Shown piece after piece: positions 4,291 through 51,684 of a stretch of 64,000 nucleotides of DNA. The stretch comes from Candidatus Woesearchaeota archaeon (GTDB lineage Archaea; Nanobdellota; Nanobdellia; Woesearchaeales; JAFGLG01), in contig JAFGLG010000017.1 in the NCBI GenBank assembly GCA_016928155.1, positions 4,134 to 68,133 of the forward strand. Reading direction: 5' to 3'. A program made the position numbers and the translations under genes. The notes beneath the pieces were generated by a model. It made no database searches and was not told where the DNA came from. It saw nothing but the letters and a program-made list of their open reading frames with translations. Every line of letters starts with the position of its first letter. Position 1 is the stretch's first letter.

Positions 4291-5343
4291 ATGGCTTCAG
4301 AACCCGTCCCCCAGTTGTATGATATCGCCTGTGAGCTTGACAGCAGGATACAAAGCTATGAAGTTTTCAGGAATGACCTCTTGGCAGCCCACCAGCAGAT
4401 GGTCGCGATGCAGGCAAAGGTCGAGCAGAGCCTGACTGATATCCTGAAATTCGGGCAGAGCACTGTCGGGATAGAGCCTCCGGCAAGGAGGGATATGATC
4501 AACAATGTCTTGTTTGCCGTCGACACACAGATGAGGACAGAGTATGCCATCCCTGCGCTTGAGATCCCGTCAGCAGAAGAATATATCGGCAGCAGGAAAA
4601 GATGTCTTGGCCTTACTGAAGAATATTCTGCGAGGTCTGAGTCTCTCAAGAGATCGGTCGAGAGGCTGGACAGGCAGAAGGAGAGGATGGTGATTTCACT
4701 CATGAAGGAAAGGGATATCTGCTGGAGGACTGGCTTGTATAATCCTCGTCTTGCAGAACCGCTGGTCGCACAGGAGATCAGGAATGTTTATGCCTGCCAA
4801 GATGGCGGGCGGCCCGCTCTGTCTTCGCTCATTTTCATTGACTTCGACAAGTTCGGCAGGTTCAACAAGCTGTATGGCAGCATCGCCACAAATGAGGTGC
4901 TGGCTCTGATTGGACACACCCTCCTTTCTAATCTCGGTCCTGATGACAAGGGTATCAGGTATGGCGGAGACGAATTATTGGTGCTCCTCCCTGGCAGGAG
5001 AGGGGACAGCGAATACTCTGAAGCCATGGAACAGGCTCTCGCTATCCAATCAGCGATATACAACCTGAATCTTGAAGACATCGATCCGGGCATGCATTTC
5101 GAGAAGCTCACTTTCAGTGCTGGCATTGTGCAGTTCAGGCCAAGGGATTCGCAAAGGGATTTTATGGCAGAGGCAAGAGAATGGATCTCAGAGGCGGATC
5201 AGATCTCCAGGCAGGCAAAAAAGGATGGGGGAAACTTGATTCTTGCCTGTGGTCGGGTAGAGGAACCCGAGAATCTGGAGCATGCGGTGCAGCATCATCC
5301 ATTGACCGGTCCTGCTGTCCTCCAAAACATTTTTATTAGGTGA
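4291..5343 (+). CDS. GGDEF-domain protein with an uncharacterised coiled-coil N-terminal domain (signature GGDEL)
   Basis: The C-terminal 180 aa align motif-by-motif with the diguanylate-cyclase palm. RTGLYNPR matches LTGLxNRR. FIDFDKFGRFNKLYG...NEVL matches DIDxFKxINDxxGHxxGDxVL. RYGGDELLVLLPG matches RYGGEEFxxxxP. ADQISRQAKKDGGN matches ADxALYxAKxxGRN. No RxxD I-site is present. Confidence 0.75.
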   Translation: MASEPVPQLYDIACELDSRIQSYEVFRNDLLAAHQQMVAMQAKVEQSLTDILKFGQSTVGIEPPARRDMINNVLFAVDTQMRTEYAIPALEIPSAEEYIGSRKRCLGLTEEYSARSESLKRSVERLDRQKERMVISLMKERDICWRTGLYNPRLAEPLVAQEIRNVYACQDGGRPALSSLIFIDFDKFGRFNKLYGSIATNEVLALIGHTLLSNLGPDDKGIRYGGDELLVLLPGRRGDSEYSEAMEQALAIQSAIYNLNLEDIDPGMHFEKLTFSAGIVQFRPRDSQRDFMAEAREWISEADQISRQAKKDGGNLILACGRVEEPENLEHAVQHHPLTGPAVLQNIFIR

Positions 5344-5359
5344 AGATTGTTTATTTCTG

Positions 5360-5941
5360 ATGAAAGATATTATAACAGAAGAGTTTGCCCTGAAGCTTCT
5401 TAAGAGATATTCAAAGTCTGGTACAAAAGGATCTTACAGGATTGTCTCATCTGATGCAAAGAGACTGAGCAAGCTTGCCGTCGCTTATGCGAAGAAAGCA
5501 GTCAAGAATGGTCATGATATTGACATTGGATTTGTGGCATCAGCTTCACTTCTGCATGATATTGGAAGATTTAGATATCCCCCATTTGCCAAGGACAATA
5601 TCAGGCATGGCATCGAAGGTGCAAGGATCCTCAAGAAAGAAGGGCTTTCAAGGAGATACCAGGATGTCTGCCTGAATCATATTGGTGCTGGTTTACGGAG
5701 GTCTGATATTATCAGGCAGAATCTCCCCCTCCCGAAGAAGGATTTCATGCCGAAGACCAAGGAGGAGATCATCATTTCCTATGCAGACTTGAGATTTCAT
5801 GAGGGTAGAGTTGTGGGTATTGTTAGGGAATCCAGGAGATATGAGTCATTCCAGAAAGGCCTCGGGAAGCGTGTTCTTCAGTTCCACAACCGTGTCATGA
5901 AGCTCATCGGAGCGGATAATAAGGTAAGGAATATAAGATAA
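5360..5941 (+). CDS. HD-superfamily metal-dependent phosphohydrolase (HDIG/YqeK-like)
   Basis: HD signature SLLHDIGRF, plus downstream His residues (HGIEGA, LNHIGAGL) and ISYADLRF. Length is 193 aa. The start is 17 nt downstream of the GGDEF gene. Confidence 0.65.
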   Translation: MKDIITEEFALKLLKRYSKSGTKGSYRIVSSDAKRLSKLAVAYAKKAVKNGHDIDIGFVASASLLHDIGRFRYPPFAKDNIRHGIEGARILKKEGLSRRYQDVCLNHIGAGLRRSDIIRQNLPLPKKDFMPKTKEEIIISYADLRFHEGRVVGIVRESRRYESFQKGLGKRVLQFHNRVMKLIGADNKVRNIR

Positions 5942-6076
5942 TAAGGTAAAAGATATAAACAAGTTCTGATTCTGATGCCCTGTCGATGATGAGGTTATCC
6001 CCGGCTGATCGCATGATGAATTCGAAACGCTCTGAGACAATATATTCAGGATCTGCTTGCTGAGCATCTGCACAAA

Positions 6077-12792: not shown

Positions 12793-12891
12793 GCGCCGAT
12801 GGTCTAATGGCTATGACAGCGGCCTTCCAAGCAGGTGAAGTCAGCCGTTTATCCGGGTTCGAAACTCTATGCGAAAGTCCCGGTCGGCGCA
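12793..12891 (+). tRNA. tRNA-Gly(UCC)-like with two predicted introns (anticodon loop and T-loop)
   Basis: Acceptor stem GCGCCGA/TCGGCGC is perfect and the discriminator is A. Anticodon stem is GCGGC/GCCGT with loop CTTCCAA, interrupted by about 13 nt. T-stem is CCGGG/CCCGG with loop TTCGAAA, interrupted by 14 nt (CTCTATGCGAAAGT). Removing the insertions gives a 72-nt cloverleaf. Confidence 0.5.
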
Positions 12892-25920: not shown

Positions 25921-26487
25921 TTATGCACCTCTTCTTTGCTTCTGAAGTTCGACATATGCTGAGACCTCTTGAGGTATTGTACCTTTGACAACAACACCCC
26001 TCAGTACATTGTAGATCACACTACGTCTGAACTTTTTTAATTCTTCCTTGTTTTTTACGGAGAATATCTGGATTTCTCGACGGAGTTTCGATTCATATTG
26101 TTGGAGGTTGATTTCGCCATCTCCATAGATGAAGATATCAATATCACTTCCGAAATACCAATCGCTCCTGGCAAAACTTCCAAACAGGATTGCGCATTCC
26201 ACATCTGCAAGATCATCAAGGATTCCGCAACTGCACAACTGATTCATTGCATATATCCTCTTCCTCAGTTTGTAGTTTCCATCCTCATGATTGCTGACAT
26301 AGTAAGGCATCTTGCCTTTTTCTTTTGTGCGCGTGATGATCTTCTCTTCCTGGAATCTCTTGAGCCATTTTGCTAGTTTGCTTTCTGCAATCCTGATTTC
26401 CTTGTTCAGTTCGCAGAAATGCCAGTGCTTTGCTGGGTTTTCAAAGAATAATCTCAATACATCCTCTTCCTTGCTATGCCTTCCCAT
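25921..26487 (-). CDS. minimal nucleotidyltransferase (MNT) with N-terminal winged helix
   Basis: ILFGSFARSDWYFGSDIDIFIY matches the GSx(n)SDxD nucleotidyltransferase signature. Confidence 0.6.
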   Translation of the reverse strand: MGRHSKEEDVLRLFFENPAKHWHFCELNKEIRIAESKLAKWLKRFQEEKIITRTKEKGKMPYYVSNHEDGNYKLRKRIYAMNQLCSCGILDDLADVECAILFGSFARSDWYFGSDIDIFIYGDGEINLQQYESKLRREIQIFSVKNKEELKKFRRSVIYNVLRGVVVKGTIPQEVSAYVELQKQRRGA

Positions 26488-26600
26488 ATTACTACCCTTA
26501 AAGGGAAGTATTATTTAAATCTTACCAATAGTTTATATGATAATTTATATAAAAGAGAAGCGATTAGATGATGTATCACACTCAAAGGGGGTGCCATAAC

Positions 26601-26975
26601 ATGGCCAAAAAAGAGGTCGAGATAAAAGCAAAAGGTGATAATTCATTCGCATTCTTATCAATCGTTGCCATAATAGCAATAGTCGCATTAGTGGTTCTGG
26701 TGACAGGAGTAGGAAAGAGACAGGCAATGCCCACCTATGTCACAACAGGGGTTGAAGGTGGAGATTTGGTTGGGCAGCCGATTGCTGAAGTGGGAGAAGA
26801 ACAAGCACCAAATAGACCACTAACAAAAGTTGATCCGCATACTGATACTGGATGTGAAGTGGTTGATAACTGGTGGCCGATTCCTGATACATGTAAAGCA
26901 AGACAAGGGAGTAATTGTCAGACTTGTTATTTTGATTCAGGCGGGAACTGCAAATGTAAAGAATTCCCTGGTTAA
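26601..26975 (+). CDS. small Cys-rich membrane-anchored or secreted protein
   Basis: Transmembrane segment FAFLSIVAIIAIVALVVLV. C-terminal CEVVDNWW...CKARQGSNCQTCYFDSGGNCKCKE. The start is ambiguous between 26568 and 26601. Confidence 0.3.
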   Translation: MAKKEVEIKAKGDNSFAFLSIVAIIAIVALVVLVTGVGKRQAMPTYVTTGVEGGDLVGQPIAEVGEEQAPNRPLTKVDPHTDTGCEVVDNWWPIPDTCKARQGSNCQTCYFDSGGNCKCKEFPG

Positions 26976-27035
26976 ACTAGTATTTTCTCATTTTTACTTT
27001 GATTTTCATCTTTATGTATTATCATGATAGCCAGA

Positions 27036-27075
27036 ATCCCAGAATAAGCCAGATATCTTAGTGATCTCTTCATGG
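27036..27075. repeat. left direct repeat flanking the Bro-N cassette
   Basis: atcccagaataagccagatatcttagtgatctcttcatgg. Confidence 0.6.
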
Positions 27076-27181
27076 TGGGGGGTAGGTTGGCAGGTTTTTA
27101 AAGGTTGCTTTATCTTTTTTCCGGAAATCCACTGGTCATTTCGGAGTGAAATATATAAACCATTAAATTATTAGTAAGTTT

Positions 27182-28021
27182 ATGGATAAAGATAATGCTT
27201 TGGTTGTTTTCCAGGACAGGAGAATCCGTAGGATTTGGCATCAGGACCAGTGGTTTTTCTCAGTCATTGATGTCGTTCAGGCTTTGACTGACAGCTCTAA
27301 TCCAAGGAATTACTGGAGTATGCTTAAGAAAAGGGAATCTGAATATGAAATTGACTTGTCCACATTTTGTGTACAACTGAAGCTGCTCTCTGCAGATGGC
27401 AAGTATTATAAGACAGATTGCGCAAATGTAAAAGCGCTTTTTAGGATTATACAATCAATTCCCTCAAAAAAAGCTGAGCCTTTCAAGCTGTGGCTCGCAC
27501 AAGTGGGATATGAACGAATTCAGGAGATAGAGGATCCAGAGCTTGCTCAAGAGCGTATGAAAGAGCTTTATGAGCAGAAAGGTTACTCGAAGGCATGGAT
27601 AGAAAAACGCCTTAGGGGAATTGCTGTTAGGCAGGATCTGACTGATGAATGGAAAAAACGTGGAGTTGATAGCCAAATCGGTTTCTCAATATTGACAGCA
27701 GAGATATCCAAAGCAACTTTTGGCATGACCCCATCTGAATATAGACTATTCAAGAATTTGAAAAATGAGAACCTGAGGGATCACATGACCGACTTGGAAC
27801 TGATCCTCAATATGTTGGGAGAAGCATCGACAGCTGAACTAGAACGGGTTCATGATCCAAATACTTTTTCTGAGCATAAACAGGTTTCTAGAGATGGAGG
27901 AAAAGTTGCAGGAAAGGCAAGGCAAGAATTAGAGAACAAGACTAAGAAACAAGTTATTAGCGAGGAAAATTATCTTGACGAGCCTGAAAAAGTAAAAAGG
28001 AAGAAACTCCCGAAAGAGTAA
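27182..28021 (+). CDS. Bro-N/KilA-N domain protein with RhuM/antirepressor-like C-terminal region
   Basis: N-terminus VVFQDRRIRRIWHQDQWFFSVIDVVQAL is Bro-N-like. The downstream segment LTDEWKKRGV...NLRDHMTDLELILN is conserved. Confidence 0.5.
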   Translation: MDKDNALVVFQDRRIRRIWHQDQWFFSVIDVVQALTDSSNPRNYWSMLKKRESEYEIDLSTFCVQLKLLSADGKYYKTDCANVKALFRIIQSIPSKKAEPFKLWLAQVGYERIQEIEDPELAQERMKELYEQKGYSKAWIEKRLRGIAVRQDLTDEWKKRGVDSQIGFSILTAEISKATFGMTPSEYRLFKNLKNENLRDHMTDLELILNMLGEASTAELERVHDPNTFSEHKQVSRDGGKVAGKARQELENKTKKQVISEENYLDEPEKVKRKKLPKE

Positions 28022-28097: not shown

Positions 28098-28145
28098 TTT
28101 GTGGGATTATTATATCTTAATAAAGTTTTCAGAAAAAAAAAATGA

Positions 28146-28301
28146 AGCGCGGAGAGGGACTTTCGGCGCCTTGGCGTTGAAAGTAAGCCACGCCAGTGGC
28201 TGCACTCGAACCCCCGAATGATCGCTGTCTGTTTTATATCATCGCCGAAGCTCAATACAGCAATCTGCAGGCGATTGCCTTAGCCGCTTGGCTACCCGCG
28301 C
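28146..28301 (-). tRNA. tRNA-Cys(GCA) with three predicted introns (anticodon, variable region, T-loop)
   Basis: On the minus strand the acceptor stem is GCGCGGG/TCCGCGC with discriminator U73. D-loop residues A14, G18, G19 and A21 are present. Anticodon stem is ATCGC/GCGAT with loop CTGCAGA (G37), split by 18 nt. T-stem is GGGGG/CCCTC with loop TTCGAGT, split by 45 nt. A further 25 nt sit between the anticodon and T arms. Confidence 0.45.
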
Positions 28302-28394
28302 TTGATGCGGCTAATCCTGTGTGAATTCTTGACCTTTATAAATATTATCTACTGAATCGCCTGATTCTGCGCCCCTTTCACTCTATAACCATTG

Positions 28395-28470
28395 AAAATA
28401 CAAGAGGTCCTGGCCAGATTCGCACAGCGAATCTGGATAAACCAGGATATGATCCCTTGAATTTTCCAGC
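28395..28470. repeat. extended-hairpin repeat element, copy 1
   Basis: CCTGG(tttat)CCAGATTCGC-aca-GCGAATCTGG..CCAGG, followed by ATCCCTTGAATTTTC. Confidence 0.55.
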
Positions 28471-28524
28471 TAAGAACACTGCAAGGCAAAGGATTAAGAG
28501 AACAAGTACAGAACCAAAAAAAAA

Positions 28525-28662
28525 CGCGCCTAGAGGGACTTTCAGGGCACTGAAAGTTCGCAACTTCAGTTGCCGCATTTGAACCCTCGATCTACAGCTC
28601 TCTTTGCTTCTATATCCAAAGCATAGAAGGCTGTCGCCCTATCCAGGCTAGGCTATAGGCGC
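28525..28662 (-). tRNA. tRNA-Arg(UCU) with two predicted introns (anticodon, T-loop)
   Basis: On the minus strand the acceptor stem is GCGCCTA/TAGGCGC with discriminator G. Anticodon stem is ACAGC/GCTGT with loop CTTCTA(A), split by a 24-nt intron. That intron contains TATAGAAG, which can pair with the anticodon loop. T-stem is GAGGG/CCCTC with loop TTCAAAT, split by 39 nt ending in GAAAGT. Confidence 0.5.
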
Positions 28663-28727
28663 ATCTGTGATAATGATAAAATACACCATTTTTAAATGTT
28701 CTGCTAAACTTTATATAAGAAACCCTA

Positions 28728-41475: not shown

Positions 41476-41976
41476 TTACTCTTCCATGATTACCTTGGTC
41501 TTGTCCAGGATTTTTTTTGCTGTATTGAGCAGGTCTGCATATTCTCCGTTTTCCAGTGTTGTTTTTGTGTTGTATTGATACTTTTCCCTCAGGCTGATTG
41601 CTGTTGTTTCATGTGCATTGATGAGTGCCACTTTTTGTATATCCTCCTTATTTAGGTTTATTTTCTTGTCATCGATCAATGACTCGATCAGGGAGAATGT
41701 GCATTCCTGGTTCCTGCTTTCGAATCCCTCTTTTAAGAGTATTGACAAGAAACAATGGTATATTGTGTAGAAAAGGCTGATTGAGCACCAGTCTGTGAAT
41801 CCTCCTTTGTTTAGGTATAATGTGGCTTTCAGGTTGTGTTCTGCCTTGGTCATGTGTTCTTTGGCTCTCGTCAGGCTTGGCTCTGTCCTGACAATGCCCC
41901 TGTGTTTGTGCCCTTTCTCAAGCTCTTTCTGCGCTTTGTTGAGGCACCATCTTAGTTTATTCTTTGCGTGACTCAT
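41476..41976 (-). CDS. HEPN-like all-helical protein, partner of the adjacent nucleotidyltransferase
   Basis: Helical HEPN-like pattern (AEHNLKATLYLNKGGF..FYTIYHCFLSILLKEGFES). No clear Rx4-6H motif. Confidence 0.35.
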   Translation of the reverse strand: MSHAKNKLRWCLNKAQKELEKGHKHRGIVRTEPSLTRAKEHMTKAEHNLKATLYLNKGGFTDWCSISLFYTIYHCFLSILLKEGFESRNQECTFSLIESLIDDKKINLNKEDIQKVALINAHETTAISLREKYQYNTKTTLENGEYADLLNTAKKILDKTKVIMEE

Positions 41977-42547
41977 GGTAAACCCTGATGAATTGGTCCT
42001 CGCCAGTCACAAGGATGCCCTTGATGGCATCTAATATTGGCTTGTGTTCCTTTTTAACATTTTCCTGGATTTCTCCGGAAGTTTGGTACAAAGGATGGAT
42101 TTTTTTCGGGTTTACCTTATTTATCTCATTGACTTCTTTTTGCAGCCTCCTGAATCTCCTCTTGTCAGTTATCAGGAGCGCATCGATATCATTCGGGTCT
42201 GGTTTCCTGAGCACTGATCCGAACAGGATGATGATGTCGGCATTTCTTATTTTTCTGAGCTCTGTTATCCATCTCCTTATCCTCGGAGGTGCGTGCAGCG
42301 CCTCTCTTGACAGCATCAGGGAAACATATCTTTTGGCATATTCTGCATTGCTTATCCTGTAGATTGTCGCCTGCCCTATCTTGCTTGATTTCAGGACACC
42401 CTCTTTTTCCAGTCTTTTCAGTATCTTCAGTGCTCCCATTGGTGTTATATTGGCTTTCTTGGATATGCTGTTCGCATTGTAATGCCTCTCCGGGCTCTTG
42501 GCTATTGTCAGTACAATCTCCATCTCTGCTGCTGTTATGTCTCTCAT
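41957..42547 (-). CDS. minimal nucleotidyltransferase with N-terminal winged helix
   Basis: IIILFGSVLRKPDPNDIDALLI matches the GSx(n)DxD signature. The start is at Met37 of the track ORF, with a TATA-like tttatatatataa about 20 nt upstream on the minus strand. Confidence 0.55.
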   Translation of the reverse strand: MRDITAAEMEIVLTIAKSPERHYNANSISKKANITPMGALKILKRLEKEGVLKSSKIGQATIYRISNAEYAKRYVSLMLSREALHAPPRIRRWITELRKIRNADIIILFGSVLRKPDPNDIDALLITDKRRFRRLQKEVNEINKVNPKKIHPLYQTSGEIQENVKKEHKPILDAIKGILVTGEDQFIRVYHESRKE

Positions 42548-42653
42548 ATAAACATCAAGTTTATATATATAAACTGATAGTTTATAAAGCTTCTGTTTAG
42601 GACAGCTGGGCCATATGGGGATTCCCCAGAAAACCGTGGGTATCAGCCCTAAC

Positions 42654-42693
42654 AAGGCTAAGGAGATAAGAAGTATCCTTGATGAGGATTATT
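42654..42693. repeat. 40-bp direct repeat copy B
   Basis: Identical 40-mer. It still encodes KAKEIRSILDEDY followed by a stop. It abuts the stop codon of the large LysM protein gene. Confidence 0.9.
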
Positions 42694-45448
42694 AGGCTGT
42701 ACCGCCATTTCCTGGCGGGTATGGGTACGAATCAACATACTCAGGTGGTGGCGGGGGGGTTGGAGGCCTCAATTGAAGGAATGAATAAGGATATCCTGTG
42801 AGCACTCTATTCCTATAATATTCTTGATACCAATCCCTCATGTTTTGCATGATCTGGTTAGATTGTTCAGATGAGACACCATATACATAGAAACCTCTTG
42901 ATACAGGAGTTGTTACCCCATATTTTTCCTCTAGCTTGTCATGCACAAATTGGTTTGCATCTGCTGAGCAGAAATCGCAATCTCCGATTGAGAAATGAGT
43001 GTTTAGTCTTTGTTCTGCATTTCTTATTGATTTGTCTCCCACTAGTCCTTTATTGGTTATTGTAGGTTCATCATATGAGAACATTGGCCCCATTGCATCA
43101 TCAAGTCTTTGCTCGAAATCATCGCCGAAATCATATTGTGATTGCCACTGTGACTCCCATAATGATTGATCCCATATTAATTCAGGTGCAAAAGGGTCAG
43201 CTCGCTGCTGTCTCATTTCTGCAAAATATTCATCAATTGAATCAGAAACATCTCTCAGTCTTAGTGGCTCATCTACTATCGTGGTCTCAAATCCTAATTG
43301 AAGATTTTCTGCTAATGCATCAGACCTGAAGAGTGAAGATGGTGATCTGTCTCCAATGGCGCAGAATAGGCTGGATGACCCGCAGTCCTGGAATGGCTCA
43401 AAATCTGCGAGGAACTCCTCTGAGTGATGTGCATCAGTCACAAATGTAGGCTCTGTGTCAAGTAGGTCTAGGTTCCCGATGTCGAATGTTGTGGTATGCC
43501 TTATTTCCTCTCTTTGTCTTTCATTGATGGCTTGCATTTGCGAGGTTGAGATCGTGCTCATCTGAATCCTCCCCCCCGCACCAGCCGAGTACTGTCTAAC
43601 TTCTGTTGCTGTCCCGGGGTTTATAAATATCTGCTCTCCTGCAAAGATAAGGTCTCCTCCTCTATCGCTTCTCTCCTGGATATTAGGATTCATTCTGACA
43701 AGGTCCTGCCATGTCACTGTTTGTCCTGTTTGCATGCTTAGATCTTGTGCAATGTGTGATAATGTGTCCCCTGATTTGACATCGTAAGTCCCGACTGCCA
43801 CATCAAATGATCTTGATGGCCTGTGTGAAACAGCTGGGGCTTCAGGATCAGGTTGAGGTGGTGTGTTTGTTGCCACCTGTTGAGGAGTTTCTACTGGCCC
43901 TAGTTGTATCACGGGCCCGTATGGTTCTGTATAGGCTAAGAACTGTTCACTGGCGCTGTATCCTCCAAAACCCATTAGACCCGCCAGTGTCGGATCTACA
44001 CCTGAACCAATCAACATACTGCCCAGAGGATCATTGAAATCAAATACTTGTTGGCCTTCTGCTATCTGAATTGAATATACCCCATCTCCCATATTGCCTG
44101 TTATGGGCTGTATTGAAATTATGGGCCCATCATTTCTAGGTACAGTATTGAGATAGACTTGAGTACCATCACTTAATCCTGTTGGGGATGATCCGAAAGT
44201 CAATGTTATCGGATCAGATGAATGGCTTTGTGTGAGTATTGTTTGAGGTTGCTGGACTCCTAACTGTTGTATCCTGAGATCTGTTCCTTCTTCTGCCCTT
44301 ACAAGCCCTTGTCCATCAACCCAGGTGTATGATGCCTGTCCGGTTGCATGCACCCCCGCCAGCATTCCGTGTGTTCTAGGGAATGTGAGATCTGCTGCCC
44401 CATTCATATCCGTATATGTTTTCCCAGTGGTTGCATCTAAAATCAGGACAGGTTGCTGCGTTGTCTCCATCCTTATCTCAACACTATTCTCATCGACAAC
44501 TCTCACAGGTCCTAAGAGTCTTGTTGTATCTCCTAGGGTTATGACTTGTATTGACTCTGAATCATCTGCCAGAAGCAAATGGCTGTTGCTTGAAGTCCTG
44601 ATATCTGAGTCATCACCTATTGAATATACTTGAAGATTATAATCATTGTCATTCTCTTTTACATAAGTCGCTCTTGGTGTGATGCCCCTATCATTTGGGA
44701 GTCTTATCTCATGATCATCTATTGTGTATCTTCCTTCAGTGCCAACTGCACCACCATAATATAACTCAACTCCAAGATTACCTTGATCATCTCCTGATCT
44801 GATATAAGTCTGCTGCATTGGTCCGACGATTGTGATTGTCTCAGAACTGTCAGAGGAGCTTACTACAACTGTGTTCCCTGTTGCATCTGTGGTAAATGTT
44901 GTCTCTGTATCAGCTTGAAGGATAAGATCATTGCTCATCTTTACTTGATTATGCTGTGCATCATATCCTTCAACAGTTGATCCGGGTCCGCCCCCTTTCA
45001 CAGTGATGGGATTCTGTTGGTTTTGTGCGTTTCCACCTGTTATTGTAAATCCGCCACCATCACCACTAACAGCCTCAACTGATGATGCCTGTCCTATAGC
45101 AGATAATGGGAGAGGAGTCCCACCAGCTGTGTTTGTCAATGTTGTTCCTGATATTGATATTCCTGGACCGCTCTTTATCTGTGTGCTACCATAGGTTGCA
45201 TCTGAATTAAGGATAACTGTGTAGCTTCCTGTGTTCATATTAGAAAGGTCTACGCTTCCTCTAGTTATTGTTATTGTATTGCCTGATTTTATTGCCTGTA
45301 CCCCTTGAGAACTGATTCCGGTAAAATCTTGAAGTTGGTCATCAGAAAGTGTCTCCTCTTCATCATCTCCTGTCCCTTCTTCTGTTGGCTGAGCAGCAAC
45401 ATTTATGACAATCAAGAGCAATACTAGAAGGACAATGATTTTCTTCAT
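42692..45448 (-). CDS. large secreted protein with LysM domain and Pro-rich C-terminus
   Basis: Signal peptide MKKIIVLLVLLLIVINVAAQ. LysM motif YDVKSGDTLSHIAQDL...WQDLVRMNP. C-terminal PPTPPPPPEY. Start overlaps the upstream gene stop (ATGA). Confidence 0.55.
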   Translation of the reverse strand: MKKIIVLLVLLLIVINVAAQPTEEGTGDDEEETLSDDQLQDFTGISSQGVQAIKSGNTITITRGSVDLSNMNTGSYTVILNSDATYGSTQIKSGPGISISGTTLTNTAGGTPLPLSAIGQASSVEAVSGDGGGFTITGGNAQNQQNPITVKGGGPGSTVEGYDAQHNQVKMSNDLILQADTETTFTTDATGNTVVVSSSDSSETITIVGPMQQTYIRSGDDQGNLGVELYYGGAVGTEGRYTIDDHEIRLPNDRGITPRATYVKENDNDYNLQVYSIGDDSDIRTSSNSHLLLADDSESIQVITLGDTTRLLGPVRVVDENSVEIRMETTQQPVLILDATTGKTYTDMNGAADLTFPRTHGMLAGVHATGQASYTWVDGQGLVRAEEGTDLRIQQLGVQQPQTILTQSHSSDPITLTFGSSPTGLSDGTQVYLNTVPRNDGPIISIQPITGNMGDGVYSIQIAEGQQVFDFNDPLGSMLIGSGVDPTLAGLMGFGGYSASEQFLAYTEPYGPVIQLGPVETPQQVATNTPPQPDPEAPAVSHRPSRSFDVAVGTYDVKSGDTLSHIAQDLSMQTGQTVTWQDLVRMNPNIQERSDRGGDLIFAGEQIFINPGTATEVRQYSAGAGGRIQMSTISTSQMQAINERQREEIRHTTTFDIGNLDLLDTEPTFVTDAHHSEEFLADFEPFQDCGSSSLFCAIGDRSPSSLFRSDALAENLQLGFETTIVDEPLRLRDVSDSIDEYFAEMRQQRADPFAPELIWDQSLWESQWQSQYDFGDDFEQRLDDAMGPMFSYDEPTITNKGLVGDKSIRNAEQRLNTHFSIGDCDFCSADANQFVHDKLEEKYGVTTPVSRGFYVYGVSSEQSNQIMQNMRDWYQEYYRNRVLTGYPYSFLQLRPPTPPPPPEYVDSYPYPPGNGGTA

Positions 45449-46470
45449 GGTTTCACCGTGAATGTGATGACTTTCCAGCCTGTCATGTTCTTTTCATCTG
45501 TGGCGCTGATGTTTGTCTCGAATGAACCTATCTCACTTGGTGTGAAGCTTATTATCCCTGTGTATTTTGCAATAGGCACTTTCGGATTGCTTGATTTGAA
45601 TATCATATAATCATCTTCTGGGTCATATGCCTCGACCTTGTGATAGAATGATTCATTCACTTCAGCTTCTAGGTCAGCAACTTGCACTATTGGGGCATGA
45701 TTCTCAATGTCATATGATGCTGCAAATAGGAAGACATAGGGAACTTCATTTATGCTCACTGTCTCAGGATCTTGGATTATATAGACAACTGAATCTTCAT
45801 AGGAGATTGTATCTATCTGTAGGTTCAGGTCTGATGATACTTCAAGCAGTGTGCTTGTTGGTATTAGTCTGGGATATTTCACTATTGAGTCAGTTATTCT
45901 CTCAGAGGCTTTAAGGATAGTCATCATTCTTGATGGCCTCGAATATTGGAATTCTGTGAAAGTCTTAACTTTTTCACCTTGCTTCACTTCAAAGGGGAAT
46001 TCCACTTTGAATACGACTGTCTCATCGCTGAATTTAACATCAGTTGCATATCTCAAATTGTCGAATTGGTATCCTTGGAACCTATATGTCTTGAAGTCAT
46101 TGAGACAATACTGGAGAGCTTCATCGACATAGTCTTCTAATTCTATCTCTAAGCTGTTCTCTGTGTGCACTGATTTTGCACCTTTGTAATAGAAATATGG
46201 CACTGGTGAATATATTGTTTCCAAATGAAGTGGGGGTATATGGTGGTATCCTCCTTTGAGCCCAAGATGAAAATATCCTATCTCTGCAACATCATCGACG
46301 CATTTCTGCGTGGACATCCTTATCTGCTCGAAGTCGGTTATACTCGCCTGTTCTACTGCCATCTCCATTTCTCCCTTGTTTCTTAGGGATGACATGTAGA
46401 TTATGAGGCTTATGATCATTATGAGCACTATGCCGAGAACTATGAATACTGTGACCTGCCCTCTTTTCAT
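45445..46470 (-). CDS. pilin-like protein with class III (type IV prepilin-like) signal peptide
   Basis: MKRG|QVTVFIVLGIVLIMIISLIIY has a basic N-terminus, a G/Q cleavage-like site and a hydrophobic stretch. 341 aa. Confidence 0.4.
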   Translation of the reverse strand: MKRGQVTVFIVLGIVLIMIISLIIYMSSLRNKGEMEMAVEQASITDFEQIRMSTQKCVDDVAEIGYFHLGLKGGYHHIPPLHLETIYSPVPYFYYKGAKSVHTENSLEIELEDYVDEALQYCLNDFKTYRFQGYQFDNLRYATDVKFSDETVVFKVEFPFEVKQGEKVKTFTEFQYSRPSRMMTILKASERITDSIVKYPRLIPTSTLLEVSSDLNLQIDTISYEDSVVYIIQDPETVSINEVPYVFLFAASYDIENHAPIVQVADLEAEVNESFYHKVEAYDPEDDYMIFKSSNPKVPIAKYTGIISFTPSEIGSFETNISATDEKNMTGWKVITFTVKP

Positions 46471-48064: not shown

Positions 48065-50662
48065 TCAGACTAGTGATTGACTTGGATTTCTAATTAGATA
48101 TTGTTGCAACCAGTAGTCTTTCATTTTTGTTTTTATCAATTCCTTCGCTTCATTTTGTTTACTCGGATCAAGCTGCCATATGTTGATTGTTCTCTGCTGG
48201 TTATTGACAGAAGTTAATGCTGTTGTTCCAAGTTCAGTTCCGACCTTCTTGGCCACTGCTTGCCAGCATGCATCATCACACCATGACTCTCCTGACACCG
48301 GAATGTCTGAGTATGTTCTTTTCCACTCAGTCCCTTCTCTATGATACCATCTTGTTGGAGCCCCCTGTCCTCGCTCAAATTCTCCAAACCTCAGATCATC
48401 TCTGTGTTCATATTCATCTGCTTTTTCAGTCAAATCTGAACGTAATACAGCCGGACCTTCAAGAGTTGTAGTATCTGAATTAGATGCTGGTTGCACATCA
48501 GACGCAAAGGGTGGCAAATCACTTAATAAAGGATTTTGCAGATATTGCCGTCCAGAAATAGGGTCGAATAGTGTGGGTTGGTAGAACGGTTTGTTGCTGA
48601 ATAAATTTCTTGCATCAAATCTTACTCCATCATCCACTTGTTCATCCGCTTGTTTAGTAGCCTCATGAATTTTATTTGCAGCTTCATCTGTTGCTCCAGA
48701 TAGATCCTTTGTTGTTATGGTCTTTAGTTTATGGTCTTGTCCTACTACTCCTTGCTTTTGTTTGCCCCAAAAAGATTCTGCAATCTTTATTTCCTCACCG
48801 ATGAATATCAGGTTTTTTCCGCTAAGTGTACTGTCACTTGCAAGCTCTATGCATCTTCCTTCAATATGCGGGTTCATCTCCATCAAATCCTGGACAGTAC
48901 GTCCATAAAGGTCAGCGATCTTCTGCAATGTATCTCCCTTTTTTACCTCAACATACCCCCTTTCAAAGGCATCGTCAGTATCATCACCAGTCTGCTGTGG
49001 AACTACCGCTTCAATATGATCCGAACCCACAAGGGCATTGGATGTTTGTTGTGCCTGAGGTTGAAGGATAAGTGGTACTGTTGTATCTTGGTTGTGGGCT
49101 GTGTCATCCAAAATTTTGACAGATGGTGCATTTTTCTCAGTAACTATTACAACTTTTGGAGTTTCAACCGTGGTTGTAGAATCGCCTTGATTTGTTGGAT
49201 TAGCCACAGGTATTTCTCGTGTAACAGATGAATCTGATATTGGATTCTTTAATTCTGAAACTTTGCCTATATCATTTTGGGTATGTATACACTTACCATA
49301 ATTGATATTATATGTAACACTATAATCAAAAAAAATTTGGGGCCCTTGTATACTAAATTTGGATTGTGGGGTTTGTGTTTCATCATAATTAATAAAAATA
49401 TCAGATTCGATATTTGGAGAATCACCAACTTTTATCCGTAGAGGCCTACGGTTATCATCACCTGCAAGTAAATCACTTCTTGACAAAGTGATCAAGTTAT
49501 AAGGGACACCATTTTCAACATAATTGACCATACTAGTATCACTAACAGAGGGGAATATTATTTGTTCAACTTTATTATCCTGAAATGAGAGCTCATGTTC
49601 GGAATAAACGTTATAATGACCATCTTTATAGGGAAAATTGGATCTTTGACCACTTATACTATTAGGTTTCCCATCATGAAAAGCTAATCTTGCCATTCCA
49701 AGTGTGATAATGCCTGTATCACCATACTCGCACTTAACATTTAAATTTGGATCATCACTTCCTACAGAAATACGATTAATAGCAACATAATCGTCGTGAA
49801 GGTTGATCCTAAAAGGGCCCACAAATTCCTCGCTCTGGGTTGTAGGTAGGGGCCAAGATGTATCTGAAGTTGTATCTTTGGAAATGGCAATATCAAAGTC
49901 TTTATAATGTAAAATACCTGATTTTATAGATGAAACATAATAACTATTTTCTTTTCTACTAAATCTTACAGCTTCCCCGCTATGGACAGTATAAGTCAAA
50001 TCTCCCAATGTAATAACTCTACCTGAGCTTTCCAAATTCTTCAAACTAGAAATAATTACAGATTTAGAGGGGTCTACACTTATGGTGCTGCCGACAAGAT
50101 CGCCTGAAACTTTGACACCATCAATACTTAATTCTTCATTATTATATTCCACTGAAACCTCCTTCACACCAGAATAAGAAAAAAGAACATCTTTATCATT
50201 ATAGGTAATTTTTTCTGATCCACCAGTATTCGAAAATTGGACATTTGAGATAACTAAGATGCTATTTTTATTAGTTATGCGAAACTTATTATTTCCAATA
50301 GCTGAGACTGACTCTGCTTTCACTTTATTCAGATCAAGCGTGTTCTTCCCGTTTGTCACAACCCCATTTTGGACTGTGACTGAGCTCGCTCCATCAAGTT
50401 TCAGGGGCATCCCATTGTATTTTGCATTTGTTTTCAGTACTACTTGATTGTTTCCGAAACTACTGAGTTCTGGTTCCCCGCCAGTCACTGTAAAGACATT
50501 ATCAGCAAATGTTCCGCTTAATCCTTTGCATACATCAGATGAAGCCCTGGTTTCACATTCTGTTTGAAAAACCTGCTCCTCGTCTGTTTCCTCAACAGGT
50601 GGATCTTGAGCAACCACTCCAGCTACCAAGAGCAAAAGGACCAGCAGTATTATCTTCTTCAT
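48065..50662 (-). CDS. large secreted LysM-domain protein, paralog of 42692..45448
   Basis: Signal peptide MKKIILLVLLLLVAGVVAQ. LysM motif YVEVKKGDTLQKIADLYGRTVQDLMEMNP. Confidence 0.55.
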   Translation of the reverse strand: MKKIILLVLLLLVAGVVAQDPPVEETDEEQVFQTECETRASSDVCKGLSGTFADNVFTVTGGEPELSSFGNNQVVLKTNAKYNGMPLKLDGASSVTVQNGVVTNGKNTLDLNKVKAESVSAIGNNKFRITNKNSILVISNVQFSNTGGSEKITYNDKDVLFSYSGVKEVSVEYNNEELSIDGVKVSGDLVGSTISVDPSKSVIISSLKNLESSGRVITLGDLTYTVHSGEAVRFSRKENSYYVSSIKSGILHYKDFDIAISKDTTSDTSWPLPTTQSEEFVGPFRINLHDDYVAINRISVGSDDPNLNVKCEYGDTGIITLGMARLAFHDGKPNSISGQRSNFPYKDGHYNVYSEHELSFQDNKVEQIIFPSVSDTSMVNYVENGVPYNLITLSRSDLLAGDDNRRPLRIKVGDSPNIESDIFINYDETQTPQSKFSIQGPQIFFDYSVTYNINYGKCIHTQNDIGKVSELKNPISDSSVTREIPVANPTNQGDSTTTVETPKVVIVTEKNAPSVKILDDTAHNQDTTVPLILQPQAQQTSNALVGSDHIEAVVPQQTGDDTDDAFERGYVEVKKGDTLQKIADLYGRTVQDLMEMNPHIEGRCIELASDSTLSGKNLIFIGEEIKIAESFWGKQKQGVVGQDHKLKTITTKDLSGATDEAANKIHEATKQADEQVDDGVRFDARNLFSNKPFYQPTLFDPISGRQYLQNPLLSDLPPFASDVQPASNSDTTTLEGPAVLRSDLTEKADEYEHRDDLRFGEFERGQGAPTRWYHREGTEWKRTYSDIPVSGESWCDDACWQAVAKKVGTELGTTALTSVNNQQRTINIWQLDPSKQNEAKELIKTKMKDYWLQQYLIRNPSQSLV

Positions 50663-51684
50663 CTTGTCACCGTGAATTTTATCATTTTCCAGTTTGTTGC
50701 ATTGAGTTCATCAACAACTGACAGGTTCACATCATACACACCTGTGACAGTTGGCGTGAAATTGATGAATCCTGAGTATCTTCCCACTGGCAGTGCTGGA
50801 TTGTCTGAAAAGAACTCGAAAGAGTCATAGTCTGCGTCAAAGCTTTCTATCTCATAGTAGAACGTCTCATTCACCTTTGCTTCCATGTCCTCGATGGGTA
50901 ATGTGGGCGGGTTGTTCATTGGGCTTGTCTTTGTCGAAAACAGGAACATGTAAGGCACCCCTCCGTCACTCAGTAGGCTCTTGTCCTGCACTACATATGT
51001 CACGATTGTCCCGTATGACAGCGTGTCTATCTGGAGGTCATGCTTTGCAGACATTTCTAATATTGTAGAGGTGGGGGTGTATCTTGGATCCTTTATGACC
51101 TCAAGGACTATTTCCTTCGCTGCATCTATTATGTTTAGCATCCTGGCTTGTTGAACATATTCGAATTCCTCATAGCTCTTCACAGCATCCCCTTTCTTTA
51201 TTTCAAGAGGATATCTTATCTTGAATATGATGTTCTTAATCCCGACTTCAACATCGGCTGTGACATTTGGCTCATTGAATGAGTATCCCATCATCTTGTA
51301 GTTCCTGAAGCCCTGCAGGCAATAAGGGAATGCCTCTTCGATTGCCTCTGATAGTTCGCGCTCAAGGTCTGTCTTATTCACCAGTCCGACATATCCCTCA
51401 AAATAGAAATAGGGTATATCTGAATATATTGATTTGAAATGCAGCGGGGGCAGGGTATAATATCCTCCTTTAAGCCCCATAGAGAAGAATTGCGTCTCAG
51501 CAACATCCTCGACGCATTTCTGTGTGAGCATCCTTATCTGCTCGAAGTCTGTCACCCTTGCCTGCTCCACTGTCATCTCAATCTCTCCCTTGTGTCTCAG
51601 GGCTGTCATGTAGATGACCAGGCTCACTATCATCAGGATTACTATGCCGAGAACTATGAATACTGTGACCTGGCCTCTTTTCAT
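50659..51684 (-). CDS. pilin-like protein with class III signal peptide, paralog of 45445..46470
   Basis: MKRG|QVTVFIVLGIVILMIVSLVIY. 341 aa, collinear with its paralog along the whole length. Confidence 0.4.
   Translation of the reverse strand: MKRGQVTVFIVLGIVILMIVSLVIYMTALRHKGEIEMTVEQARVTDFEQIRMLTQKCVEDVAETQFFSMGLKGGYYTLPPLHFKSIYSDIPYFYFEGYVGLVNKTDLERELSEAIEEAFPYCLQGFRNYKMMGYSFNEPNVTADVEVGIKNIIFKIRYPLEIKKGDAVKSYEEFEYVQQARMLNIIDAAKEIVLEVIKDPRYTPTSTILEMSAKHDLQIDTLSYGTIVTYVVQDKSLLSDGGVPYMFLFSTKTSPMNNPPTLPIEDMEAKVNETFYYEIESFDADYDSFEFFSDNPALPVGRYSGFINFTPTVTGVYDVNLSVVDELNATNWKMIKFTVTR

Follow-up and report, generated by a model that had tools for sequence, protein, structure and literature searches.

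Background

The closest described precedent for the genes considered here is the intron at position 59/60 of pre-tRNA-Cys(GCA) in ARMAN-2, a 13-nucleotide (nt) intron with an hBH (bulge-helix-loop) motif that is cleaved in vitro by the ARMAN-2 tRNA splicing endonuclease, EndA (PMC3239211). We have analysed a 64-kb stretch of DNA from a Candidatus Woesearchaeota archaeon (DPANN), hereafter the window, in which three tRNA genes, for tRNA-Arg(TCT), tRNA-Cys(GCA) and tRNA-Gly(TCC), are each interrupted in the anticodon loop at 37/38 and again in the T-loop at 59/60 by insertions with the geometry of bulge-helix-bulge (BHB) introns. The feature is thus of a known kind, in a new member of the lineage. 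Both organisms belong to the DPANN and share the 59/60 site, and the two motif types of ARMAN-2 recur here, hBH in the 14-nt intron of tRNA-Gly and the strict hBHBh' motif (helix-bulge-helix-bulge-helix) in the longer introns; in ARMAN-2, too, interrupted tRNAs are missed by standard tools (PMC3239211). The two differ in that ARMAN-2 has a three-unit epsilon2 EndA with an ASL loop, whereas the EndAs of Woesearchaeal relatives are alpha4-like proteins of about 200 amino acids with no such insert, and in that disruption affects 56% of the tRNA genes in ARMAN-2 overall, against four of the four genes sampled here with introns at both 59/60 and 37/38.

The Thermoproteales offer a second comparison, although they belong to the TACK superphylum and have an (alpha-beta)2 EndA with a crenarchaeal loop. 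The primary papers on their multi-intron tRNAs and intron transposition are Sugahara 2008 and Fujishima 2010, and reviews describe multi-intron tRNAs, 'intron transposition' and paralogous groups of introns (PMC4090602, PMC4033280). As in the genome studied here, their tRNAs have up to three BHB introns, at non-canonical sites that include the T-loop, and paralogous introns occur across genes. The paralogous groups of the Thermoproteales, however, are numerous and located at varied positions, whereas we find one small family (Arg, Cys and, elsewhere, Phe), always at 59/60.

Within the DPANN, Kaneta et al. (2018) associate an alpha4-type EndA with disrupted tRNA genes, with a Woesearchaeota genome included, and report that DPANN tRNA sets are incomplete and need manual curation (PMC5829648); the present locus is a concrete example. 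The same paper credits an 'L3' loop with broad specificity, whereas 12 Woesearchaeal EndAs have a Tyr-to-His loop of the same length as that of Methanocaldococcus jannaschii. Outside the archaea, one and the same nuclear tRNA of Cyanidioschyzon merolae can carry three introns, in the D, anticodon and T regions, with BHB-like junctions (PMC3728597, PMC9602550), an arrangement that a tRNA-Gln described below resembles. C. merolae, being eukaryotic, has a heteromeric Sen complex, and its case is of independent origin. In split and permuted tRNA genes, as in Nanoarchaeum equitans and Caldivirga, pieces are processed by EndA via BHB junctions. The genes examined here differ from these, as each has all its exons together on a single strand, colinear and contiguous within 99-156 nt, with neither trans-splicing nor permutation.

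Interrupted tRNA genes in the window and its flanks

We found no tRNA in the unspliced 64-kb window with ARAGORN (default or -i) or Rfam (at the gathering threshold or at E <= 10). Once four insertions are excised from the region of tRNA-Arg and tRNA-Cys, two perfect cloverleaves appear, and default ARAGORN accepts both. An earlier note on this DNA had proposed two minus-strand tRNA genes, Arg and Cys, within 28146-28662, whose acceptor and T stems are perfect only with the insertions removed; both proposals hold, the genes being Arg(TCT) at 28662-28525 and Cys(GCA) at 28301-28146, with spliced products of 75 and 73 nt. The note also reported a T-loop insertion in tRNA-Gly, and this third interrupted gene (12793-12891, plus strand) was recovered by an exon-anchored search and is accepted by ARAGORN -i once its T-loop insertion alone is removed. 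The parts of the three genes are as follows, with exons in 5' to 3' order; the limits of exons and introns were confirmed by extracting the sequences, and the T-runs were read from the sequence.

28525-28662, minus strand: tRNA-Arg(TCT) gene; exons 28662-28624, 28599-28578 and 28538-28525; spliced product 75 nt
28600-28623, minus strand: tRNA-Arg intron 1, 24 nt, canonical site 37/38, BHB
28539-28577, minus strand: tRNA-Arg intron 2, 39 nt, T-loop site 59/60, hBHBh'
28516-28524, minus strand: T9 run directly 3' of tRNA-Arg, putative archaeal oligo-T terminator
28689-28696, minus strand: TATA-like box TTTAAAAA, 27-34 nt 5' of tRNA-Arg, putative promoter
28146-28301, minus strand: tRNA-Cys(GCA) gene; exons 28301-28265, 28226-28205 and 28159-28146; spliced product 73 nt
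28227-28264, minus strand: tRNA-Cys intron 1, 38 nt, a single intron at 37/38, BHB
28160-28204, minus strand: tRNA-Cys intron 2, 45 nt, site 59/60, paralogue of tRNA-Arg intron 2
28133-28142, minus strand: T10 run 3 nt past tRNA-Cys, putative terminator
28335-28342, minus strand: TATA-like box TTTATAAA, 34-41 nt 5' of tRNA-Cys, putative promoter
12793-12891, plus strand: tRNA-Gly(TCC) gene; exons 12793-12829, 12843-12863 and 12878-12891; spliced product 72 nt
12830-12842, plus strand: tRNA-Gly intron 1, 13 nt, site 37/38, relaxed hBH (bulge-helix-loop)
12864-12877, plus strand: tRNA-Gly intron 2, 14 nt, site 59/60, relaxed hBH

The spliced products are canonical cloverleaves with the expected identity features and with anticodon and T loops of 7 nt. 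The last exon base is the discriminator, G73 in tRNA-Arg and T73 in tRNA-Cys, and CCA is not encoded in the window tRNA genes. A TATA-like box lies about 25-41 nt upstream of each of the three genes, and each is also accompanied by a T-run; in archaeal transcription generally, such boxes act as promoter elements and T-runs as terminators.

At 37/38, the tRNA-Arg intron combines a 5-bp outer helix (the anticodon stem), bulges TA/T and AG/A (here and below, the slash marks the predicted cut after the second base), a central helix CTTC:AAAG with three of four pairs and one C.A mismatch, and a 5-bp inner helix. The corresponding tRNA-Cys intron has a 5-bp outer helix, bulges AG/A and AC/A, a central helix CTGC:ACAG, again with three of four pairs and one C.A mismatch, and an inner helix of 2 bp. 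In tRNA-Gly the outer helix is 6 bp, the central helix CTTC:GAAG is complete (4/4) and the 3' bulge is TC/A; the 5' cleavage site is predicted to lie in the hairpin loop. The earlier note had counted three introns in tRNA-Cys. If the 38-nt insertion at 37/38 is divided into pieces of 18 and 20 nt, neither piece forms a BHB, whereas the 38-nt intron as a whole does, so that the gene has two introns. Within this intron, GGCGATGAT is a near-repeat of the downstream exon segment AGCGATCAT, which is the 3' strand of the anticodon stem; the copy may be a trace of intron origin or a decoy pairing partner. Because of this internal copy, ARAGORN under relaxed settings settles on an 18-nt solution, and the resulting model (-ps90; 18-nt intron, 25-nt variable arm) was rejected as poor.

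Using exact-protein look-up, we extended the sample of this genome by about 10 kb downstream (L001) and about 4 kb upstream (L002), to 78 kb in total. A gene for tRNA-Gln(CTG) is present at L002:602-752, some 3.3-3.4 kb upstream of where the window starts. It contains three introns, of 22 nt in the D-loop (HBh', GGCC:GGTC), 29 nt at 37/38 and 27 nt at 59/60. The central helix is complete (4/4) in all of them, and the spliced product of 73 nt is accepted by default ARAGORN. Every tRNA gene in the sampled 78 kb (4/4) is therefore interrupted at least twice, always at both 37/38 and 59/60, and no uninterrupted tRNA was found there. An acceptor-free T-arm/BHB scan of the 78 kb returned only these four genes above chance level; a loose whole-gene BHB scan was too noisy to inform on its own. 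The claim that every tRNA in the window carries an intron of this class thus stands for all tRNAs that can be detected, and extends to the one in the 4-kb upstream extension. Because default ARAGORN and Rfam detect none of the tRNAs in 64 kb, tRNA counts from automated annotation and tRNA-based completeness of such DPANN metagenome-assembled genomes will be too low unless intron-aware tools are used.

Position and geometry of the T-loop intron

Each of the three genes in the window can pair bases 54-57 of its T-loop (TTCA or TTCG) with bases -6 to -3 of the intron (TGAA or CGAA), after which come two more intron bases and then a T. In tRNA-Arg, T54-A57 (TTCA) pairs with TGAA (4/4) above a 5-bp T-stem, with bulges AA/T and AG/T and an irregular inner helix. 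The tRNA-Cys intron has TTCG:CGAA (4/4), bulges AG/T and AG/T, and an inner helix of 2 bp, a bulged A and 3 bp; the tRNA-Gly intron has TTCG:CGAA (4/4) and a 3' bulge AG/T.

We examined a larger sample with an exon-anchored scanner that is blind to intron sequence. The scanner demands U8, the motif TTCRA and two helices, a T-stem of 5 bp and an acceptor helix of 7 bp, and a match was kept if ARAGORN accepts the sequence minus the T-loop insertion. The sample of 1.36 Mb comprised the window, the two extensions and 80 loci of related genomes anchored on alanyl-tRNA synthetase (AlaRS). Among the 47 tRNAs resolved, 19 have a T-loop insertion, 14-93 nt in length: four in this genome and 15 from 12 relatives, representing at least 10 isotypes (ARAGORN calls). 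No T-loop-interrupted tRNA was found in reversed and block-shuffled control sequence. Among the relatives, 15 of the 43 resolved tRNAs have the 59/60 intron, in 12 of the 26 loci with resolved tRNAs. A census that allowed one extra BHB intron anywhere gave eight more genes, against two in the reversed control; these are tentative and were left out of the counts.

At the predicted register the central helix is complete (4/4) in 16 of the 19 interrupted genes and has at least three of four pairs in 18, whereas a register shifted by 1-4 nt gives four pairs in only 0-1 of 19. By pair-counting, 94.7% of cells are paired, versus 24-57% when the register is slid. The pair 57:-6 covaries (G-C in 12 genes, A-U in six, unpaired in one; n = 19), and none of 500 shuffles paired or covaried to the same extent. 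A T directly precedes the 3' strand of the T-stem in 19/19 genes, as T60 does in 28/28 uninterrupted relatives, whereas the first inserted base is variable (A in nine, T in eight, C in two). As T60 is constant and encoded 3' of the insertion, the site is 59/60 and not 60/61, where the earlier note had put it; the rule of cutting after the second bulge base, applied symmetrically, also yields 59/60.

With the T-stem and central helix enforced in folding, the BHB structure is the minimum free energy (MFE) structure of the Gly T-loop intron and lies 0.2-0.5 kcal/mol from the MFE in Arg, Cys and Gln, Arg being within 0.3. Over the folding results taken together, the BHB structure either is the MFE or differs from it by 0.2-1.3 kcal/mol. 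The T-loop introns of these last three genes also have an inner helix, which completes the hBHBh' motif. The internal hairpin that had been noted in the Arg and Cys insertions (ACTTTC:GAAAGT) belongs to a two-hairpin fold that competes with the central helix.

In one relative (L031), the likely orthologue of the window's tRNA-Gly is interrupted at the same two positions, but by introns of unrelated sequence, and other, more divergent tRNA-Gly genes near AlaRS are without a T-loop intron. Taken together, these comparisons point to gain or loss of T-loop introns and to rapid turnover of their sequences. In a 59/60 BHB intron, the conserved T-loop itself is one strand of the recognition helix, and this accounts for the recurrence of the site in distant archaea.

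Splicing endonucleases of related genomes

Searches were made with the M. jannaschii EndA sequence, which matches PDB 1A79 exactly. The EndA family search returned proteins of about 200 amino acids, many of them source-labelled Woesearchaeota or Nanoarchaeota, and the best 120 matches listed all have both the N-terminal (PF02778) and catalytic (PF01974) domains. Twelve aligned Woesearchaeal EndAs match the alpha4 M. jannaschii enzyme end to end, with the catalytic triad Y115, H125 and K156 invariant, and have no insertion relative to it except that the L1/L2 site is one residue longer. What is called 'L3' in the EndAs of NEQ and ARMAN-2 corresponds to the Tyr-to-His loop (PMC3488258); this loop has 10 residues in the 12 Woesearchaeal EndAs, as in M. 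jannaschii, and 15 in ARMAN-2, and in the 12 it contains one Lys and one Arg only. The only addition in the relatives' enzymes is a Lys-rich N-terminal tail of 20-90 amino acids. The earlier note had asked for a check of the genome for an EndA of a suitable type; made on relatives, this check shows an EndA that is alpha4-like and is without the inserts linked to broad specificity (CSL/L1, ASL/L2 and L3).

Among the AlaRS-anchored loci, only one (L072) includes an EndA gene, and no tRNA was resolved there. No contig was found with both EndA and a tRNA carrying a T-loop intron, the seven further EndA neighbourhoods examined (L086-L092) being without a resolvable tRNA. In these neighbourhoods a gene for a metallo-beta-lactamase-fold (RNase Z-like) protein lies divergently upstream of EndA, and genes for FEN1 and Trm5/TYW2 lie downstream; in two of them (L088, L089) AlaRS is located about 8 kb from EndA. 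The conserved gene order looks like a tRNA-processing gene neighbourhood.

A small family of related T-loop introns

The T-loop introns of tRNA-Arg and tRNA-Cys are homologous, as the earlier note had stated. With the six constrained 3' bases removed, they are identical at 24 of 33 ungapped positions (z = 5.4; 0/5000 shuffles reach the score), and in hairpin 1 they differ by one compensatory change, from A-T to C-G. Among the nine introns of the four tRNA genes examined in this genome, no other pair is alike. Neither the T-loop introns of Gly and Gln nor the four introns of the anticodon loops show sequence similarity; Gly and Gln have in common only the YGAA+NN 3' end, which BHB pairing to the conserved T-loop forces upon them.

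A metagenome scan for the shared intron blocks, with the tRNA body unconstrained, gave one true match; two others (L084, L085) are chance matches and not tRNAs. The true match is a tRNA-Phe(GAA) gene in another metagenome (L083; Ga0066639_10259298, 188-442) whose 59/60 intron, 44 nt long, belongs to the Arg/Cys family and has the pattern TGCTGC...AACTTTCA...CCTGAAAG. In this intron the two-hairpin fold reaches -12.2 kcal/mol, versus -18.8 kcal/mol for the splicing-competent fold. A second intron of this gene, 29 nt long, lies in the D-loop (CCTG:CAGG, 4/4; its inner helix has 7 bp), and the anticodon loop is without an intron. The search pattern had been derived from the family itself, which in part accounts for the likeness of the match. 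The match indicates that the family is older than a local copying event and is limited evidence of spread. A small paralogous family is thus present and reaches beyond a single pair of genes.

Interpretation and alternatives

We consider it very probable that these are functional, independently transcribed tRNA genes whose primary transcripts each carry BHB introns at 37/38 and 59/60. The sequences themselves show the exon/intron boundaries, the BHB geometry with its covariation and its recurrence among relatives, and that the T-loop introns of Arg and Cys are paralogues. Cleavage, ligation, the responsible enzyme in this genome and the function of promoters and terminators we infer. In the proposed mechanism, the T-stem would form the outer helix at 59/60, and the near-universal T54-T55-C56-R57 would pair with intron bases -6 to -3 (YGAA or G.U variants) in a 4-bp central helix. 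The two 3-nt bulges that would flank this helix would each be cut after the second base; EndA would cut both bulges of each motif, an RtcB-type ligase would then join the exons, and splicing would restore the 7-nt T-loop (TTCRANT) and the anticodon loop.

Several observations weigh against this interpretation. EndA was found neither in the window (Pfam, all 50 non-overlapping open reading frames (ORFs) of at least 100 amino acids) nor in the two extensions, and of nine EndA accessions at NCBI none belongs to the accession block of this genome; nor was its ligase gene recovered. Strict hBHBh' motifs are described as a requirement of typical alpha4 enzymes (PMC3239211), and the relatives' EndA is alpha4-like, yet the motifs are of relaxed type in both introns of Gly (hBH) and in the D-loop intron of Gln (HBh'). 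For the Arg and Cys T-loop introns, the two-hairpin fold is about equal in energy to the BHB fold, and the 37/38 central helices of the same two genes each contain the C.A mismatch described above. In this order, alpha4-like EndAs without the known specificity inserts thus appear to coexist with relaxed BHB motifs. A stronger proposal, that essentially every tRNA of the lineage is obligatorily interrupted at 59/60 and that the relaxed motifs are removed by an alpha4-like EndA without the three known loops, seems to us unlikely. Were it true, an intron that has the universal T-loop sequence as the template of its 3' end would have a 'universal address' and be able to colonise any tRNA; EndA would act through another determinant, such as the Lys-rich N-terminal tail or a conserved Lys before LQLSL; and there would be a further, undescribed route to broad EndA substrate specificity.

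The rejection of the interrupted genes by standard tRNA finders is what one would expect of decaying pseudogenes that have accumulated insertions, with functional tRNAs encoded elsewhere. Such decay is nonetheless very unlikely: after excision every stem is perfect, the insertions fall exactly at the two sites and registers that give a BHB, covariation being seen over 19 genes, 12 related genomes have the same architecture, the promoter-like boxes and terminators (whose functions are presumed) are intact, and the 78 kb of this genome contain no uninterrupted tRNA. The tRNA L-shape depends on interaction between the T-loop and the D-loop. If the T-loop insertions were retained in the mature tRNA as an unspliced expansion segment, an insertion at 59/60 would disrupt that interaction; and although the insertions are structured, and the near-equal energies of the two folds in Arg and Cys would suit such a segment, their length varies from 14 to 93 nt and their sequence is unconserved while the BHB register is conserved. 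As the ARMAN-2 59/60 intron has, moreover, been excised experimentally (PMC3239211), we regard retention as highly improbable. That the introns of Arg, Cys and Phe are paralogous, together with a Bro-N gene in a lower-GC stretch adjoining tRNA-Cys, could instead suggest small mobile elements that target the T-loop independently of EndA, whether self-splicing or resembling miniature inverted-repeat transposable elements (MITEs). Insertions of 14-45 nt are, however, far below the size of group I or II ribozymes and lack terminal inverted repeats and target-site duplications; no free-standing copies occur within the window, and the sole universally conserved feature is what a BHB requires, so that this explanation is scarcely credible. 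The Haloferax tRNA-Trp intron contains C/D-box motifs; in the introns examined here, checked by eye for such motifs, CUGA is present and the C box absent.

How the Arg and Cys introns came to be alike is a separate question. The earlier note took their likeness as a sign of genome-wide spread of one intron family, a claim that the comparison of the nine introns sampled does not support, as only these two are alike and their genes are neighbours with a 223-bp spacer (28302-28524). Because of this adjacency, local copying, by segmental duplication or gene conversion of the T-arm and intron, remains a live explanation for the pair. The likeness also continues past the intron, through the T-stem to the base that begins the 3' strand of the acceptor (both genes have CCCTCT), and of this genome's four sampled T-loop introns no others are alike. 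Against a purely local event stands the tRNA-Phe member in a different metagenome, which implies that the family predates such an event or is independent of it. On balance we lean slightly away from local copying in place of a spreading mobile family, while regarding it as a serious possibility. In the sequences compared, what is widespread is the position class; they do not show that one family has spread through the genome.

Neighbouring genes and other features of the window

Proteins encoded in the window include Topo VI A and B, Nre, XPD, SMC, AlaRS, ValRS and CysRS. Its AlaRS is identical (100%) to MBN1386678.1, a protein of a Candidatus Woesearchaeota archaeon, and in the nearest relatives AlaRS identity is only about 57-63%. 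The organism is thus a member of the DPANN.

Between tRNA-Arg and tRNA-Cys, a long hairpin is located at 28385-28475 (minus strand), with the core CCAGAUUCG/CGAAUCUGG and an MFE of -35.7 kcal/mol (z = -5.0; 0/200 shuffles as stable). On the other side of tRNA-Cys, a Bro-N ORF (27182-28021, plus strand) and a nucleotidyltransferase ORF (25921-26487, minus strand) directly adjoin the gene, with a GC content of 0.40-0.43; the stretch 25921-28021 may be an integrated mobile element beside the tRNA genes.

Four further features were noted:

4291-5343, plus strand: protein with a GGDEF (diguanylate cyclase) domain, here in a DPANN genome; an HD-domain protein comes next, at 5360-5941
5982-6038, plus strand: candidate archaeal C/D-box small RNA (sRNA)
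41476-42655, minus strand: HEPN-domain ORF overlapping a DUF6932 (nucleotidyltransferase-like) ORF
42692-46470 and 48065-51684, minus strand: two-gene cassette in two tandem copies

The candidate sRNA has clear C, D', C' and D boxes, and its Rfam matches are sub-threshold (sR14, E = 2.5e-4; snoPyro_CD, 33.3 bits against a gathering threshold of 45). The HEPN and DUF6932 ORFs are probably a toxin-antitoxin pair. Each of the tandem cassettes consists of a large protein that contains LysM, of 918 or 865 amino acids, followed by a 341-amino-acid protein without a Pfam match.

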